Shown piece by piece: positions 48,106 through 56,025 of a stretch of DNA of 64,000 nucleotides. Below the pieces are notes generated by a model. The model had not been told where the DNA came from. It saw only the letters and a list, made by a program, of their open reading frames with translations, and ran no database searches. How positions within the stretch are numbered: the first letter of the stretch is position 1; each line of letters starts with the position of its first letter. Made by a program: the position numbers and the translations under genes. Origin of the DNA: Escherichia coli (GTDB lineage: Bacteria; Pseudomonadota; Gammaproteobacteria; Enterobacterales; Enterobacteriaceae); assembly GCF_016026235.1 (NCBI RefSeq), contig NZ_CP065613.1; one strand, written 5' to 3'.

Positions 48106-49125
48106 TTACCTGAAAGCAACAGTAGCCATAGCTAACGTCGTGTCGAGCATTCGGTTAGCAAAGCCCCATTCGTTATCGCACCAGACCAACGTTTTGATCA
48201 GGTGTGCGCCACTGACCCGGGTTTGGGTGCCATCGACAATGGCACTGTGCGGATCGTGGTTAAAATCTACAGAGACCAACGGCAATTCCGTATAGTCAAC
48301 TATACCATGAAATGCACCTTGTGCTGCTTTTTGCAGCAACAGGTTGACTTCATTGGCTTTTACAGGTTTCTTCACCGTCACGCTTAAATCGATTGCCGTC
48401 ACATTTATGGTTGGCACACGTACCGCAATCGCTTCAAAGCGATCGTTAAATTGCGGAAAAAATCGTGTGATACCGGCGGCCAGTTTAGTATCGACCGGAA
48501 TGATCGACTGGCTGGCTGCCCGAGTGCGACGCAGGTCAGGATGGTATGCATCAATAACCTGTTGATCGTGCATGGCGGAGTGAATTGTGGTCACTGTGCC
48601 GGACTCAATACCGTACGCATCATCTAACAATTTGATGACGGGAATTATGCAATTCGTGGTACAGGAAGCGTTAGAAACGATGCGGTGTTCCGCACGAAGT
48701 TGATCCTGATTGACGCCGTAAACAACGGTCGCGTCGAGATCGTTACTGCCAGGATGTGAAAAGAGCACTTTTTTGGCCCCAGCGGCAATATGCGCTTCGC
48801 CATGCTCGCGGGAGCCATATACGCCGGTGCAGTCGAGGACTACATCAACGCCAAGTTCACGCCAGGGGAGCGATTGCAGTGAACGTTCATGCAATACGCG
48901 GATGGCGTCATCACCAACAAAAAGTTGATCGCGTTCCTGTCGTACTTCCCATGCAAAACGGCCATGGCTGGTGTCATATTTCAACAAATGCGCCATGCCC
49001 GCAGCATCCGCCAGTTCGTTGATTGCCACCACGGTAATTTCCGCCCGGCGTCCGGATTCATACAAAGCACGAACCACATTACGCCCGATGCGACCGAAGC
49101 CATTTATCGCTACGCGTACGGTCAT
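48106..49125 (-). CDS. epd: D-erythrose-4-phosphate dehydrogenase
   Basis: 339 aa from [21 protein letters not shown]... Confidence 0.95.
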
Positions 49126-49496
49126 AGATCTCCTGCAAGGTTTTCCCTGAGCAAATTTGCCAGACAGAGTAATCCAGCAAATCGTCCGGGGAAACCTTAC
49201 CTGTCGCAAACTGCGACTGATTGGTTAATTGTCGAACATTTAATCGACTGAAACGCTTCAGCTAGGATAAGCGAAACGTGGAATAAAAGGAATGATTGTC
49301 CAGTCAAAGAAAGCAATTATCTGACTTACGTCACGTTTTCAGCCCCGCCCCTGTGGAATTTATTCCACTTTGCAGAATCACGAATAAGCGTAGCAAAATC
49401 TTTTCGTTGTGCCGTCACAAACCCTGACTTATATCAGAATATGACTGATGCAGCGTCGATATTATCCGCAATACGTCCGAGTTTCGGAGTACTCCA

Positions 49497-49928
49497 ATGA
49501 TGACATTGCCCTACCCATATTCTTCCTCCGCACGCTTTTACGCACTGCGCCTCCTCCCTGGGCAGGAAGTTTTTTCCCAGCTACACGCTTTTGCACAGCA
49601 GCATCAACTTCATGCCGCCTGGATTGCAGGCTGTACCGGTAGCCTGACTGACGTCGCCTTGCGCTATGCCGGGCAAGAAGGCACCACGCTCCTGAACGGT
49701 ACATTCGAAGTGATCTCACTAAACGGCACGCTGGAACAGAGTGGTGAGCATCTTCATCTCTGCGTTTCCGATCCACACGGCACGATGCTTGGCGGTCATA
49801 TGATGCCCGGCTGTACCGTGCGGACCACGCTTGAACTGGTGATCGGTAGCCTTGAGGAACTGGCGTTTAGCCGCCAACCTTGCGCGCTTTCTGGTTACGA
49901 CGAGTTGCATATTTCCCCCGTTAAATAA
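49497..49928 (+). CDS. PPC/DUF296-domain protein, 143 aa, function unknown; first gene of the ECF-type cluster
   Basis: ORF with GGAG 8 nt upstream; domain assignment by recollection of the family, not by search. Confidence 0.55.
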   Translation: MMTLPYPYSSSARFYALRLLPGQEVFSQLHAFAQQHQLHAAWIAGCTGSLTDVALRYAGQEGTTLLNGTFEVISLNGTLEQSGEHLHLCVSDPHGTMLGGHMMPGCTVRTTLELVIGSLEELAFSRQPCALSGYDELHISPVK

Positions 49929-49950
49929 CTACTTTCAAAGAGGTTTTCTT

Positions 49951-50529
49951 ATGGCGCGTAGCCACTTTTCCAGTCAGGCACTGGTGTTGATCGTTATATC
50001 TATCGCCATCAATATGATCGGCGGGCAACTGGCCAGCATGGTCAAATTACCTATATTTCTCGACTCCATCGGCACACTTATTAGCGCGGTACTGCTTGGT
50101 CCGGTGATCGGAATGCTGACCGGCTTACTGACCAATTTACTCTGGGGATTGCTGACCGACCCGATCGCCGCCGCATTTGCACCCGTCGCGATGGTCATCG
50201 GCCTGGTCGCCGGTTGGCTGGCGCGAGCGGGTTGGTTTCGCACCCTGCCAAAAGTCGTTGTCAGCGGCGTGATTATTACGCTTGCGGTAACGGTCGTCGC
50301 TGTACCGCTGCGTACTGCGCTGTTCGGCGGTGTCACCGGTAGCGGAGCCGATTTGTTCGTTGCCTGGATGCACTCGATGGGGCAAAACCTGGTGGAGTCG
50401 GTGGCGATTACGGTGATAGGCGCGAACCTGGTCGATAAAATTCTTACAGCGGTGATTGTCTGGCTTTTACTGCGCCAGCTGCCGATTCGCACCACGCGCC
50501 ATTTTCCGGCAATGGCTGCCGTGCGCTAA
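49951..50529 (+). CDS. ECF-transporter S (substrate-capture) component, about 192 aa, substrate unknown
   Basis: Small polytopic hydrophobic protein with about 5-6 TM helices; RBS AAGAGG; immediately followed by the T and A components. Confidence 0.6.
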   Translation: MARSHFSSQALVLIVISIAINMIGGQLASMVKLPIFLDSIGTLISAVLLGPVIGMLTGLLTNLLWGLLTDPIAAAFAPVAMVIGLVAGWLARAGWFRTLPKVVVSGVIITLAVTVVAVPLRTALFGGVTGSGADLFVAWMHSMGQNLVESVAITVIGANLVDKILTAVIVWLLLRQLPIRTTRHFPAMAAVR

Positions 50530-51237
50530 ATGCATCCATTTACCTCATTAACACTGTGGGCATTGGCGGCCTGCACCACGCTTATCCTGCCCGCGCAGAC
50601 CATTTTGCCGATCTATAGCGCGGCGACCTTTTTCTGCCTTATTGCGCTAAAGGCCACGCGGCGGCGGGCAAAATATGTCGTCTGGCTGATGTTCTCGCTG
50701 GGAGCCGGGCTGTGGCTGGTACACGGTGGCTGGCTACCAGAATGGCTAAGCGGCACGCCACGCTCGCCAGAACGGTGGTCGCATGCTATTACGCTCTGGT
50801 TGCGGATTCTGGCGATTGTTTCAACCTCACAGTTGTGGATGCAGTACGTCCCCGTGCAATGTTTTATTCGCGCTCTGTTTGCTTCTCGCCTGCCGCCAGG
50901 CGTCGCTTATCTGTTTGCCGGGCCGTTATTGGTCGTTGAGCAGTTAAAACGGCAATTAGCGATTATTCATGAAGCGCAGCGTGCCCGCGGCGTGTCGCTG
51001 GATGAGGGCTGGTATCAGCGTTTACGTGCGATGCCCGCGTTAATTATTCCGCTAACACACAATGCGCTTAACGATCTGGCTGTCCGTGGTGCGGCGCTGG
51101 ATATGCGGGCATTTCGGATCCACAACCGACGAACAACGTTGTGGGCACCAGCCGATAGCACCCTACAACGCGTAGCGCGTTACACCATGATCTTGCTGAT
51201 GCTGACAGAATTCGGAGCGTGGATATGGTTACGTTAG
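50530..51237 (+). CDS. ECF-transporter T (transmembrane coupling) component, EcfT/CbiQ family
   Basis: 235-aa membrane protein with an Ala-Arg-Gly coupling motif (EAQRARGVSL); start abuts the S-component stop. Confidence 0.65.
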   Translation: MHPFTSLTLWALAACTTLILPAQTILPIYSAATFFCLIALKATRRRAKYVVWLMFSLGAGLWLVHGGWLPEWLSGTPRSPERWSHAITLWLRILAIVSTSQLWMQYVPVQCFIRALFASRLPPGVAYLFAGPLLVVEQLKRQLAIIHEAQRARGVSLDEGWYQRLRAMPALIIPLTHNALNDLAVRGAALDMRAFRIHNRRTTLWAPADSTLQRVARYTMILLMLTEFGAWIWLR

Positions 51238-51902
51238 AACAGTTCCGTTATTGCCCGACACACTCAACGCATCCTCCGTTCTGTTATGACTTTCACTATG
51301 TCAAACCGGGGATGGTCGCCATCTTTGGTGACAACGGCAGTGGCAAAAGTACGCTGGCACAGCTGATGGCGGGCTGGTATCCGGACTTTCTGCCAGGAGA
51401 GATAACAGGCACGGGGACGCTCCTCGGTACGCCCATTGGGCATCTCCCGCTTAATGAACAATCCGCCACCATCCAGCTCGTCCAGCAATCGCCCTATTTG
51501 CAGCTCTCCGGCTGTACCTTTAGCGTGGAAGAAGAAGTTGCCTTTGGGCCAGAAAATCTGTGTCTTGCTGAAGCAGAGATTATGGCGCGGATTGATGCCG
51601 CCCTGACTCTGACCGAGTGCCAGCCGTTGCGCCATCGTCACCTGGCAACACTCTCCGGTGGAGAGACACAGCGCGTGGTCATCGCCTGCGCCATCGCGAT
51701 GCAGCCAAAGCTCTTAATTCTTGATGAAGCCTTTAGCCGCCTGACTCCGCAGGCCAGCGAAATGCTGTTGCAGCGCTTACAACACTGGGCGTTTGAACGT
51801 GGTTCGCTGATTATTCTTTTTGAACGTCATCGCACACCTTTCCTGAACTACTGCCAGCAAGCGTGGCAATTGCAAAACGGAGCGCTCCAGCCACTATGTT
51901 AA
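51219..51902 (+). CDS. ECF-transporter ATPase A1 (ABC ATPase)
   Basis: Walker A GDNGSGKST, signature LSGGETQRV, Walker B LLILDEA; start overlaps the T stop. Confidence 0.8.
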   Translation: MDMVTLEQFRYCPTHSTHPPFCYDFHYVKPGMVAIFGDNGSGKSTLAQLMAGWYPDFLPGEITGTGTLLGTPIGHLPLNEQSATIQLVQQSPYLQLSGCTFSVEEEVAFGPENLCLAEAEIMARIDAALTLTECQPLRHRHLATLSGGETQRVVIACAIAMQPKLLILDEAFSRLTPQASEMLLQRLQHWAFERGSLIILFERHRTPFLNYCQQAWQLQNGALQPLC

Positions 51903-52573
51903 CGTTAAATAAGATATCTTATCGCTGGCCTGGCGCGGCAACGGATTGTCTTTGCGACATTTCTCTGCAACTCAAACAAGGTGAATGGTTGGCGCTGACC
52001 GGCGACAATGGCGCGGGAAAATCGACGCTGTTACGAGTAATGGCAGGTCTTCTTACGCCCACAGCCGGTACGGTTATGCTGCAACAACAGGCGATGAAAA
52101 ACCTGAAAAACCGCCAGCGCGCGGCAAAGGTTGGCGTACTGTTTCAGGAAGCGGAAAACCAACTTTTTCACAGCACCGTCGCTGACGAGATCGCATTTGG
52201 TTTGAAACTGCAAAAATGCCCGGCGGATGAAATCACTCAACGTACCCATGCTGCCCTGCAATGTTGTCAGTTAGCAGACACTGCCAACTCGCACCCGTTG
52301 GATCTGCATAGTGCGCAGCGACGGATGGTCGCCGTCGCCTGCCTGGAAGCACTCTCTCCGCCACTATTACTGCTGGACGAGCCGAGTCGGGATTTTGACG
52401 AAAATTGGTTGAGCGTGTTTGAAAGCTGGCTGGAGAAGTGCCGCCAGCGAGGCACGAACGTGGTAGCAATCAGTCATGACGCCGCATTTACCCGGCGTCA
52501 TTTCTCTCGTGTGGTGCGACTGGAAGATGGTGTAATCAGGAACGTTAATCCACCAGACGATATTCACCCGTAG
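51896..52573 (+). CDS. ECF-transporter ATPase A2 (ABC ATPase) with a degenerate signature motif
   Basis: Walker A GDNGAGKST, Walker B LLLLDEP, H-loop ISHD; signature position reads HSAQRR not LSGGQ; start ATG overlaps the A1 stop (ATGTTAA). Confidence 0.78.
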   Translation: MLTLNKISYRWPGAATDCLCDISLQLKQGEWLALTGDNGAGKSTLLRVMAGLLTPTAGTVMLQQQAMKNLKNRQRAAKVGVLFQEAENQLFHSTVADEIAFGLKLQKCPADEITQRTHAALQCCQLADTANSHPLDLHSAQRRMVAVACLEALSPPLLLLDEPSRDFDENWLSVFESWLEKCRQRGTNVVAISHDAAFTRRHFSRVVRLEDGVIRNVNPPDDIHP

Positions 52574-53258
52574 CGGTCATCATTAAGGTCAAATTTGCAG
52601 GCAGACTCTCTTCCAGCACCCGGCGAACATTCGGCCCGTCGGTACGGTCATAAAAGGCTTCTGCATCTGCCAGCGATACCCCTCCCGCCAGCTTGCGCCC
52701 CACCAGACGCTCCCGCAACGCAGTAGCTGGCGCGTTGATAAAGATCGAGAAATCACAAAATTGCGCAAGCTGGCACCACTTCTCGTCGTCCAGCAACAAC
52801 CAGTTTCCTTCGACGATGACGAGTGGTGCGGTAACGTGCAACGCATCTTCAACAGGATCATGCTTTTGTCGATCGTACTGCGGCCACGTACAATCCCCTT
52901 CCACCACCTGGCGCAGATTTTCCGCCAGTTTCGCAACGTCAAATGTCTCTGGTGCGCCTTTGAAGGGGCGCAATTGATGCGCGTCCAGCCAGCTATTGTA
53001 ATGGTGAAAACCATCCATCGGGAGCGTCTGAATAGCGGGTAGTTCCGGGTCTTGTTGCGCGAGATATTCCCAGAAGGTGGTTAGGGTAGATTTACCCGTC
53101 CCCGGCGGAGCGCAAAGAAAAACTACCGTACGCCGCTGTGGATTTACCGTCTGTAAGGCCGCCAACATGCGCAGCAACGGTTTATGTACATTTTCTATTT
53201 CATCATCAGAGTACTGAGCCTGTACCTTTAGTCCATTCACCGTCAGTTCGATTTTCAC
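52545..53258 (-). CDS. yggC: P-loop kinase-like protein YggC
   Basis: 237 aa, Walker A CAPPGTGKST; 3' end overlaps A2 convergently by 29 bp. Confidence 0.9.
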   Translation of the reverse strand: MKIELTVNGLKVQAQYSDDEIENVHKPLLRMLAALQTVNPQRRTVVFLCAPPGTGKSTLTTFWEYLAQQDPELPAIQTLPMDGFHHYNSWLDAHQLRPFKGAPETFDVAKLAENLRQVVEGDCTWPQYDRQKHDPVEDALHVTAPLVIVEGNWLLLDDEKWCQLAQFCDFSIFINAPATALRERLVGRKLAGGVSLADAEAFYDRTDGPNVRRVLEESLPANLTLMMTATGEYRLVD

Positions 53259-53785: not shown

Positions 53786-54751
53786 TCAATGCAGGGAGTC
53801 TATTATATTACACGTTTGGTCCGCGCCGCCGATCAGTAATGTCTGCGTCCGCACCCCATTCGCCGTCTGTTGGATACCGTTCACCAACTCCCCGCCCGTC
53901 ACACCCGTAGCGCTAAAGAGGATATCGTTCCCCCTCACCAGTTCATCGAGCGAGTACACACGGTTAACGTCAACGCCCATTTCTCTGCAACGCTTGCGCT
54001 CCTGCTCTGCAATCTGCCGATTTTCCGTGTAATCCCCTTTAGCCTGACAAAAGTCAATCAGCTCGGCCTGCATATCCCCACCTAATGCTTTAACGGCACA
54101 GGCAGAAATCACGCCCTCCGGCGCACCGCCGATGGTGTACATCACGTCGTAAGGATTATCCTGCCAGCAGGTCAGCACGCTGGCGGCGACATCGCCATCC
54201 GGCAGAGCGAAAACCTTCACGCCCAGCTGTGTTGCTTCTTCAATTGCGGCACTCAGGCGCGGTTTATCCAGCGTAACCATGCGCAGCTTGTCCAGCGGTT
54301 TACCTAACGCCCGCGCCACGTTACGCAAGTTGTCCGCCAGAGGCAAAGACAGATCAATCGCCCCGGCAGCCAGTCGATTAACAACCAGCTTTTTCATATA
54401 CATATCGGGCGCATGTAACAGGCTATCTCGAGGGGCGAAAGCCATGACCGCCAGCGCATTGCTCTGCCCCATCGCTACCATCCGCGTGCCTTCAATCGGG
54501 TCAACCGCGATATCGACTTCTGGCCCATCGCCTTTGCCCACCTCTTCGCCAATCCACAGCATCGGCGCATGGTCAATTTCTCCTTCGCCGATAACCACTC
54601 GTCCACGAAAAGCGACGTCGTTTAATGCCTGGCGCATCGCGGTGACCGCCAGGCCATCAATTTTATTTTTGTCGCCACATCCGGTTTGCGGCCAGGCAGC
54701 CAACGCTGCCTGTTCCGTAACGCGAAATAATGGCCACGCCAGGGACATCAT
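53786..54751 (-). CDS. yggF: Fructose-1,6-bisphosphatase class II (GlpX paralog) YggF
   Basis: 321 aa. Confidence 0.9.
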   Translation of the reverse strand: MMSLAWPLFRVTEQAALAAWPQTGCGDKNKIDGLAVTAMRQALNDVAFRGRVVIGEGEIDHAPMLWIGEEVGKGDGPEVDIAVDPIEGTRMVAMGQSNALAVMAFAPRDSLLHAPDMYMKKLVVNRLAAGAIDLSLPLADNLRNVARALGKPLDKLRMVTLDKPRLSAAIEEATQLGVKVFALPDGDVAASVLTCWQDNPYDVMYTIGGAPEGVISACAVKALGGDMQAELIDFCQAKGDYTENRQIAEQERKRCREMGVDVNRVYSLDELVRGNDILFSATGVTGGELVNGIQQTANGVRTQTLLIGGADQTCNIIDSLH

Positions 54752-56025
54752 TGCGCGGCCTCCCCGATATCAACGCCAAATTGTGCCAGCAGATATTTCT
54801 CGGCCTGTTCATTCCAGATGCCGTGCGTTTCCTCAACCAGCCGCGCCAACTCTTTAAACAGCGGATCGGTTTTGCCTTTTTCGGCAAAATCGGCAATGGC
54901 AGTGAGCGGCATGGTCACGCCGTTATAAATGAGTTTTTTACCGCCAGGGATATCCGGCAGATTGAGCACGGTATCTGGCACCGCATCCAGCCCACCGATA
55001 TGCGTGACCATAAAGGACGGCTGCAACTGCCCCGTGGCGCTTAACGCAATCGCCTCTTTCATGTCGTCCGTTGAACCGCCGGATGTACCGACTACGTGCG
55101 TGCTGTTGTAATGGACGTTGTAGAAATTAAACGGCACTTTGAAGTTTTTATCCGTCGGCCCGGCAAAGAAGTTCAGACAGCCATCTTCCGCCAGTAATTC
55201 GTCAGCCATCTCAACGACAGCAGGCACCGCCGCATAAACAAAAATGTCATCGAACCCGACATCTCCTGTCAGCGCCCGCAGCGTCTGGACCGGATCGCTC
55301 ATCCCTTTGGTATTCACATACACCAGCTCAATGCCTTTACTGGCCGCCAGATCCACCGGCAGCAGCTTCTGCACCTGCGCCAGGCGTTTGTCGTCGATAT
55401 CGACCACCACCACCCGTGACGGTTGTATGCCACCGTTAATGGCGTAATCGATAGCGCCAATGCCCATCGGACCCGCACACGCCAGCAGTGCAATATTGCC
55501 GCCAGGTTTGACGCCCATGCGATGCTCATAAACATATTGCGTGGTGTGATAATTGGCATGATAAGCACCAATAATGCAGCACATAGGCTCTGCCAGCGAC
55601 GCCGCAGCAAAATAAGAGCCGTGATACGGTAATACGCAGCCCAAATTAATGGCGATTTCGGGAATAATCATATAGGTGGCGTTACCGCCAAAATATTCGT
55701 AGCTGTAGCCCGCTGAATATCCGCTTGGTAACCCCATCGCCGGTTGCAATACAAAACGCTGGCCTTTTTTATATTTGCCAGTGAGATTTTTACCCACTTC
55801 GACAATAACCCCAGCACATTCATGCCCGGTAATGACCGGATGATTTTCTAAATCGTCGGGTACGCGTTTATGTTCACTACCGAGTAACGCCGCTTTCCAG
55901 GTGGATAAACAGACGCTGTCAGAAATCACACTCACCAGTAATTCATTATCGGTAATTTCTGGCAGTTCAAATTCGCGCAGACGGACATCCCGCTTGCCAT
56001 AAATAGCAGCAACTTTGGTTTTCAT
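54748..56025 (-). CDS. yggP: Zn-dependent sorbitol-dehydrogenase-like oxidoreductase YggP
   Basis: 425 aa, MDR family. Confidence 0.88.
   Translation of the reverse strand: MKTKVAAIYGKRDVRLREFELPEITDNELLVSVISDSVCLSTWKAALLGSEHKRVPDDLENHPVITGHECAGVIVEVGKNLTGKYKKGQRFVLQPAMGLPSGYSAGYSYEYFGGNATYMIIPEIAINLGCVLPYHGSYFAAASLAEPMCCIIGAYHANYHTTQYVYEHRMGVKPGGNIALLACAGPMGIGAIDYAINGGIQPSRVVVVDIDDKRLAQVQKLLPVDLAASKGIELVYVNTKGMSDPVQTLRALTGDVGFDDIFVYAAVPAVVEMADELLAEDGCLNFFAGPTDKNFKVPFNFYNVHYNSTHVVGTSGGSTDDMKEAIALSATGQLQPSFMVTHIGGLDAVPDTVLNLPDIPGGKKLIYNGVTMPLTAIADFAEKGKTDPLFKELARLVEETHGIWNEQAEKYLLAQFGVDIGEAAQ

Follow-up and report, generated by a model that had tools for sequence, protein, structure and literature searches.

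A putative degenerate ATP site in the two-ATPase motor of an ECF-type importer cassette of Escherichia coli

The 64,000-nucleotide stretch of Escherichia coli DNA analyzed here (contig NZ_CP065613.1 of assembly GCF_016026235.1; hereafter, the window) carries a five-gene cassette that appears to encode an importer of the ECF (energy-coupling factor) type, a branch of the ATP-binding cassette (ABC) transporters, with two different ATPases that we denote A1 and A2. The sequences of these proteins suggest that the motor they form is functionally lopsided. The explanation that we consider likely to be correct is that one of its two composite ATP sites (site II) is hydrolytic and the other (site I) is a conserved degenerate site that binds ATP and acts as a latch, within a cassette (49497-52573) that is a dedicated, group-I-like ECF-type ABC importer. 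The two ATPase genes are:

51225..51902, + strand: A1 ATPase (Pfam ABC_tran, 1.3e-21)
51896..52573, + strand: A2 ATPase (Pfam ABC_tran, 1e-27)

The A2 gene corresponds exactly to a RefSeq coding sequence of E. coli IAI1 that is labeled ‘ABC transporter ATP-binding protein’. If the asymmetry proposed here is real, the twofold use of that name for A1 and A2 (‘ABC transporter ATP-binding protein (x2)’) conceals two functionally different subunits.

The initial annotation of the window had reported that A2 carries a degenerate motif, HSAQRR, at the position of the ABC signature and at the same time keeps its Walker A, Walker B, and H-loop motifs, and both parts of this claim withstand scrutiny. 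The motifs in question are:

52001..52027, + strand: A2 Walker A, GDNGAGKST (K42), the P-loop of the consensus site
52304..52324, + strand: A2 signature, degenerate: LHSAQRR (residues 137-143) where LSGGQxQ would be expected
52364..52399, + strand: A2 Walker B, LLLLDEP (D161, E162; Walker B itself 52364-52384), with the D-loop SRDFD
52466..52480, + strand: A2 H-loop, AISHD (H194), canonical

The Q-loop of A2, LFQEAE (Q84), is canonical as well. Three independent alignments agree on the register of the unusual signature: phmmer comparison with solved structures aligns LHSAQRR to LSGGQKQ in both nucleotide-binding domains (NBDs) of ABCB4/ABCB1 with maximal posterior probability; BLASTP of A1 against A2 pairs LSGGETQRV with LHSAQRRMV; and hmmalign, run with a profile of about 260 other ECF-type NBDs, puts LHSAQRR in the signature column with the posterior ‘*’ at every position. 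That a canonical signature might lie elsewhere in A2 is excluded, given that no alternative SGG, SGxQ, or SxGQ occurs anywhere in the protein. Fifteen orthologs, which belong to Escherichia, Salmonella, Citrobacter, Klebsiella, Leclercia, and Atlantibacter and share 67-96% identity with A2, all have L137, H138, A140, Q141, R142, R143, and M144, and position 139 alone varies (S/T/A); the broader pattern L[HN][STA][AG][QE]RRM is kept in Escherichia, Salmonella, Citrobacter, Klebsiella, Providencia, and metagenomic fused versions. Between E. coli and Citrobacter werkmanii, the proportion of nonsynonymous differences (pN) in A2 is 0.18, compared with a proportion of synonymous differences (pS) of 0.75. 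This value, together with the ortholog invariance, argues that the motif is not a product of decay. Gene decay, a sequencing error, or a misalignment, such that A2 would be a pseudogene or the true signature would lie elsewhere, is accordingly extremely improbable as a source of the motif: beyond the deviation itself, it has in its favor the accessory nature of the cassette, which E. coli K-12 lacks, and it is refuted by the full-length region in 3319 complete E. coli genomes, the invariant orthologs, the excess of pS over pN, and the concordant alignments.

The signature of A1, LSGGETQRV at residues 143-151, is canonical, as the initial annotation had it. What that annotation missed is a second deviation, in the H-loop of A1, where the His is replaced by Arg (R201) and E200 occupies the Ser/Thr position; the non-canonical D-loop of A1 was missed as well. 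The motifs of A1 are:

51327..51353, + strand: A1 Walker A, GDNGSGKST (K41), the P-loop of the degenerate site, kept in all clade members
51651..51674, + strand: A1 signature, LSGGETQR, canonical, residues 143-150, contributing to the consensus site
51711..51746, + strand: A1 Walker B, LLILDEA (D167, E168), with the non-canonical D-loop SRLT
51816..51830, + strand: A1 H-loop region, LFERH (R201 codon 51825-51827)

The assignment of R201 to the His position is agreed on by the conserved Gly located eight residues upstream, by MAFFT (276 aligned NBD segments), and by hmmalign with high posterior. An ambiguous phmmer alignment to ABCB1 would have placed the H-loop at E200 or H202, and is overruled by the Gly anchor and the two multiple alignments. 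The ‘ER’ pair is invariant in all eight A1 clade members, namely, those of E. coli, Citrobacter, and Providencia, of three metagenomic cassettes, and of two fusions of the T component (the membrane coupling subunit) to A1 and A2, and the residue that follows it varies (H/N/A/T), which implies that H202 of the E. coli protein is not a displaced catalytic His. Also invariant in this clade are the Gly-Lys core of Walker A, the Asp-Glu of Walker B, and the Q-loop Gln of A1; the last P-loop residue varies, and the aromatic residue of the A-loop is mostly present. The D-loop has the form SR[LIV]x throughout, with the terminal canonical Asp replaced by T/S/Q/Y.

Each nucleotide-binding site of an ABC dimer is built from the Walker A and B motifs plus the A-, Q-, and H-loops that one NBD provides and from the other NBD's signature, and hence the degenerate signature of A2 belongs to the site with the P-loop of A1. 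We infer that A1 and A2 form a head-to-tail heterodimer, given the overlap of their genes and the existence of A1-A2 and T-A1-A2 fusions among their relatives. In such a dimer, site I would comprise the P-loop (K41), D167-E168, and Q-loop of A1, with R201 in place of the His, and LHSAQ of A2 in place of LSGGQ; site II would comprise K42, Q84, E162, and H194 of A2 and LSGGE of A1, that is, every consensus catalytic residue. Thus, A1 R201 and A2 LHSAQ line one and the same predicted composite site, and the proposal, made from the signature difference between the two ATPases, of an asymmetric heterodimer in which one ATP site is consensus and the other degenerate is supported by the convergence of both deviations on a single site. 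The combination has precedent: in degenerate nucleotide-binding sites, the signature is always mutated, often together with changes in the H-loop or Walker B of the partner. His-to-Arg substitutions in the H-loops of MalK (H192R) and HisP (H211R) leave less than 2% of the ATPase activity, and by analogy with these mutants, hydrolysis at site I is expected to be slow or not to occur at all.

The relatives of the two proteins suggest that this asymmetry is not a peculiarity of E. coli. We searched 1.84 billion cluster representatives, among which close relatives turned out to be few:

P0123 and P0124: single-domain A2-like proteins, signature LHAGQ
P0122: natural A1-A2 fusion, YFERH / LHAGQ
P0135 and P0148: T-A1-A2 triple fusions, LERN or LERT / LNSAE

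Most of the remaining top matches are fused two-NBD proteins, and all eight that were sampled score above the cutoff of the TIGR04520/04521 ECF ATPase models. The polarity of the site deviations was assessed in 127 such fused ECF ATPases (P0126-P0270; about 460-600 residues, some also fused to T):

Non-canonical signature: 15/127 N-terminal NBDs, 94/127 (74%) C-terminal NBDs
H-loop His absent: 26/127 N-terminal NBDs, 1/127 C-terminal NBDs

The polarity is the same as in A1 and A2, so that the E. coli pair would seem to represent a split, more extreme version of an arrangement common in two-NBD ECF ATPases. The clade members P0122 and P0135/P0148 share the ER and L[HN]xxx motifs with the E. coli pair. 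The fused proteins, by contrast, mostly retain the N-terminal His (‘EH’) and alter mainly position 3 of the signature (LSRGQ, LSKGE), whereas in the E. coli clade, the ATPases are encoded by separate overlapping genes, and signature positions 2-4 as well as the His are changed. A second systematic asymmetry between the two halves concerns the residue preceding the H-loop His: Glu or Asp occupies this place in 79 of the 127 N-terminal NBDs (‘EH’/‘DH’), and Ser or Thr does so in 124 of the 127 C-terminal ones. A separate scan of genome contigs with an A2-clade alignment, which captures generic Walker A/Q-loop patterns and therefore is not a taxonomic census, yielded at least 80 loci, nearly all of those listed being unrelated ABC ATPases with 26-35% identity; among the loci listed, the useful ones were only those of Citrobacter (L002), Providencia (L004), and Arthrobacter (L003). 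The locus of Arthrobacter mangrovi (L003, 2288-6621) contains a fused ECF ATPase in which the N-terminal His is replaced by Gln (LLTQT) and the C-terminal signature reads LPASG; the ATPase adjoins a T component, a 262-residue putative S component (the substrate-binding membrane subunit), and a protein that, by eye, resembles nucleoside hydrolases of the inosine-uridine type. This locus appears to be a further degenerate-site ECF system, possibly one for nucleoside import.

Several observations weigh against a hydrolytically impaired site I. A1 keeps the catalytic Glu of Walker B, unlike many classical degenerate sites, in which this residue is replaced by Asp, Ser, or Met. Not all deviations map to site I: the D-loop of A1, SRLT, is non-canonical, and the D-loop reaches toward the consensus site. 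In the fused family, the C-terminal signature is non-canonical in 25 of the 26 proteins with a His-less N-terminal NBD (Fisher p = 0.0024), which speaks for an impaired site, but this p-value is indicative only, because the sample was picked by similarity to A2 and is phylogenetically non-independent. Furthermore, it is conceivable that catalysis is still sustained by a His or Asn in the second position of the signature, small residues in the third and fourth, and Arg201. This last point can be developed into an alternative, under which both sites are competent, the combination of L[HN][SA][AG][QE] with E200-R201 is a co-evolved alternative chemistry, and two ATP molecules are still consumed per cycle; His or Asn would then replace the contact of the signature Ser with the gamma-phosphate, and Arg would replace the His linchpin. 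The strict conservation of the variant residues, with no sign of drift, the retention in A1 of the Lys of Walker A, the Asp-Glu of Walker B, and the Gln of the Q-loop, and the presence of the second signature Gly (LHAGQ, LNAGQ) in most clade members outside Escherichia, Salmonella, and Citrobacter are all compatible with such a scheme. Nevertheless, we consider it unlikely given the near-complete loss of activity in the MalK and HisP mutants, the fact that a changed signature is the universal hallmark of hydrolysis-impaired sites, and the one-sided polarity of the fused family, which shows hardly any alterations in the other site, as befits relaxed catalytic constraint on one site. Should site I prove active after all, the motifs described here would amount to an ordinary sequence variant only.

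The opposite alternative, that the P-loop site of A1 has no nucleotide function or accommodates another ligand, leaving A1 as a purely structural partner, draws on the three motifs that deviate at or beside the site, namely, the A2 signature, the A1 H-loop, and the A2 D-loop SRDFD. However, the invariant Gly-Lys core, Asp-Glu, and Q-loop Gln of A1, along with the aromatic A-loop residue present in most members, would be unexpected if binding were dispensable, and this possibility therefore appears quite improbable.

Returning to the reading in which site II hydrolyzes ATP and site I retains it, the following cycle can be envisaged. ATP bound at both sites would close the A1-A2 dimer; hydrolysis at site II would in turn power the movement of the coupling helices of the T subunit, whereby the S component would be expelled or released and reset. 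Site I, all of whose binding residues are kept, most likely would bind ATP and hydrolyze it very slowly or never, so that the bound nucleotide might serve as a latch or hinge that helps close the NBD dimer and hold it together, and one ATP would be hydrolyzed per cycle. In the exporter TM287/288, the nucleotide at the degenerate site has been proposed to keep the NBDs in contact. More speculatively, the latch might compensate for the lack of a C-terminal dimerization domain in the short subunits of the E. coli type. A functional asymmetry was already suspected in canonical ECF modules, inasmuch as cryo-electron microscopy (cryo-EM) of ECF-FolT2 under turnover conditions shows ATP retained in EcfA and ADP in EcfA'.

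Among single-NBD structures, those most closely related to both ATPases include the EcfA chains found in group II EcfA/EcfA'/EcfT modules, such as those from Lactobacillus brevis (4HUQ), L. delbrueckii (5JSZ/ECF-FolT2), and Thermotoga maritima (4HLU): A2 matches chain 4huq_B with E 1.5e-29 and 5jsz_A with E 5.8e-28, and A1 matches 4huq_B with E 5e-23. As the cassette appears to do, group II systems pair two different ATPases with a single T subunit plus an S component. In the ECF modules of solved structure, the Mg-ATP of each of the two ATPases contacts an LSGGQ signature, unlike in the cassette, where one signature is LHSAQ and an Arg stands in for the H-loop His of the partner. Also unlike the shared module of group II, which serves several S components encoded elsewhere, the cassette encodes its S component in the same S-T-A1-A2 operon. 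Moreover, A1 and A2 comprise 225 residues and stop some 50 residues ahead of the EcfA C-terminus (residues 3-225 of A2 correspond to 25-250 of the 300-residue chain) and thus lack the C-terminal domain. Their best NCBIfam matches are ECF_ATPase_1/2 and cbiO, all far under the equivalog cutoffs (116 bits for A1 against ECF_ATPase_1), which, along with the missing residues, implies that A1 and A2 are relatives rather than members of EcfA1/EcfA2. Equating A1 with EcfA and A2 with EcfA' was considered and is undecidable, as the two share the same best PDB chain and have near-equal ECF_ATPase_1 and _2 scores. The orthologs in Providencia (L004, 5172-6837) and at a further locus (L083, 4166-5822) are 273-285 residues long and apparently keep the C-terminal extension.

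Degenerate sites are well documented in ABC exporters, and in this wider context, the asymmetry of A1 and A2 is unsurprising. TM287/288, BmrCD, TAP1/2, CFTR, MRP1, and Pdr5 all combine, as A1 and A2 do, a non-consensus signature with a deviating partner residue in one site, opposite a fully consensus second site, and the degenerate site of Pdr5, with LNVEQ and an H-loop Tyr, is a close formal parallel. These exporters, however, belong to types IV and V, with NBDs fused to the transmembrane domains, whereas the predicted product of the cassette is an importer of type III (ECF), the NBDs of which are soluble, and the commonest change in exporters, Walker B Glu to Asp, is not found in A1, where E168 is kept. 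Among importers, sequence suggests one non-functional ATP site also in the fused-NBD proteins RbsA and NupO; those belong to the class dependent on a substrate-binding protein and have lost the second Walker A Lys, whereas the Walker A motifs of A1 and A2 are both intact. The A1-A2 pair would thus add an ECF-type importer to the cases noted in exporters and, by sequence, in RbsA/NupO. In the literature searched, with partial coverage, we came across no ECF transporter described as having a degenerate site.

ECF transporters serve as antibiotic targets, and their mechanism, in which the S component topples, is unusual for ABC proteins. The cryo-EM data on ECF-FolT2 hint at asymmetry; a natural one-site ECF motor in E. 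coli, Salmonella, and Citrobacter would offer a direct handle on how many ATP molecules are consumed per cycle and on whether the two sites act in sequence. If the proposed asymmetry holds, the E. coli cassette becomes a genetically tractable model for both ATP stoichiometry and site asymmetry. The prevalence of non-canonical C-terminal signatures in the sampled fused proteins suggests that the phenomenon is widespread. A tentative extension, which we regard as doubtful, is that a degenerate non-hydrolytic site is general in ECF motors with two non-identical NBDs, split or fused, such that one ATP is used per toppling cycle and the ATP-occupied degenerate site serves as a permanent hinge, which in the short subunits of the E. 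coli type would stand in for the C-terminal dimerization domain.

The two ATPase genes are the last of five same-strand genes located between epd and yggC, in which neighbors abut or overlap; the other three are:

49497..49928, + strand: PCC/DUF296 protein, cassette gene 1 (Pfam PF03479, E 6.7e-29)
49951..50529, + strand: ECF S component, substrate-binding membrane subunit (Pfam ECF_trnsprt, RefSeq annotation)
50530..51237, + strand: putative ECF T component, coupling membrane subunit (RefSeq annotation; Pfam CbiQ, 22.6 bits)

The TAA stop of A1 and the ATG start of A2 share 7 nt (ATGTTAA), an overlap that suggests translational coupling. All five genes are under purifying selection, with pN of 0.06-0.18 and pS of 0.59-0.79 between E. 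coli and C. werkmanii; these proportions are quoted, with no ratio of nonsynonymous to synonymous substitution rates (dN/dS) for A1, because dS reaches saturation in the E. coli-Citrobacter comparison. The region 49400-52700 is 99.9% identical to that of E. coli FDAARGOS_943, and the cassette is carried by 3330 of the 5426 complete E. coli genomes (61%), with the region in full length in 3319 complete genomes. In K-12 MG1655 (L088), the cassette is missing, and epd is followed directly by yggC, 284 bp away; the segment 49210-52573 thus looks like an accessory insertion or deletion at the epd/yggC junction. The operon is seemingly uncharacterized: for its presumed Salmonella tags, STM3071-3075, which are guessed from gene order and unconfirmed, the literature covered here yielded only two passing mentions.

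The S component scores 35.3 bits against Pfam ECF_trnsprt (cutoff 30.7) and is named ‘ECF transporter S component’ in RefSeq. Its score against the NCBIfam CD3073-family equivalog, 136 bits, falls under the cutoff of 180, and its subfamily and substrate are therefore not assigned; ‘CD3073’ did not turn up in the literature searched, and an Rfam scan of 49050-50000, from upstream into the cassette, for riboswitches indicative of the substrate remained without matches at E <= 1. The S component encoded beside the T-A1-A2 fusions is very similar to that of E. coli (KLPIFLD, GGVTGSGADFFVAY), a similarity that suggests a common substrate in distant organisms. The fusions themselves (P0135 and P0148; L085, 5001-7052) comprise 652-683 residues and are preceded only by an S gene, without a PCC gene. 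The T component is recognized by Pfam CbiQ slightly under the gathering score (22.6 bits against 25) and by no NCBIfam model; RefSeq names it a T component, and domains homologous to it are fused to A1-A2 in P0135/P0148. Its sequence includes the stretches EAQRARGVS and LAVRGAALDMR, whose ARG and VRG resemble the Ala-Arg-Gly motifs of coupling helices.

The first gene of the cassette encodes an ortholog (E 4e-75) of the proteins in PDB entries 2HX0/2NMU, which are structural-genomics entries without an assigned function. A PCC gene lies upstream of S-T-A1-A2 also in Citrobacter (L002), Providencia (L004), and three further loci (L082, L083, and L084), and the recurrence of this order in unrelated genomic neighborhoods is an argument for counting the PCC protein as part of the system. 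This association suggests that the role of this ‘putative DNA-binding’ PCC/DUF296 protein is linked to the transported substrate and not to DNA binding.

At the distal end of the cassette, the 3' end of A2 (+ strand) overlaps that of yggC (− strand, 52545-53258) convergently over 29 bp (52545-52573). A scan for promoters and terminators gave counts equal to the shuffle expectation and found no terminator-like site between the 3' ends of A2 and yggC. Farther downstream, yggP (54748-56025, − strand) is an intact open reading frame for 425 residues in the window, whereas in E. coli IAI1 (L001, 8349-9301), it is annotated as a frameshifted pseudogene.

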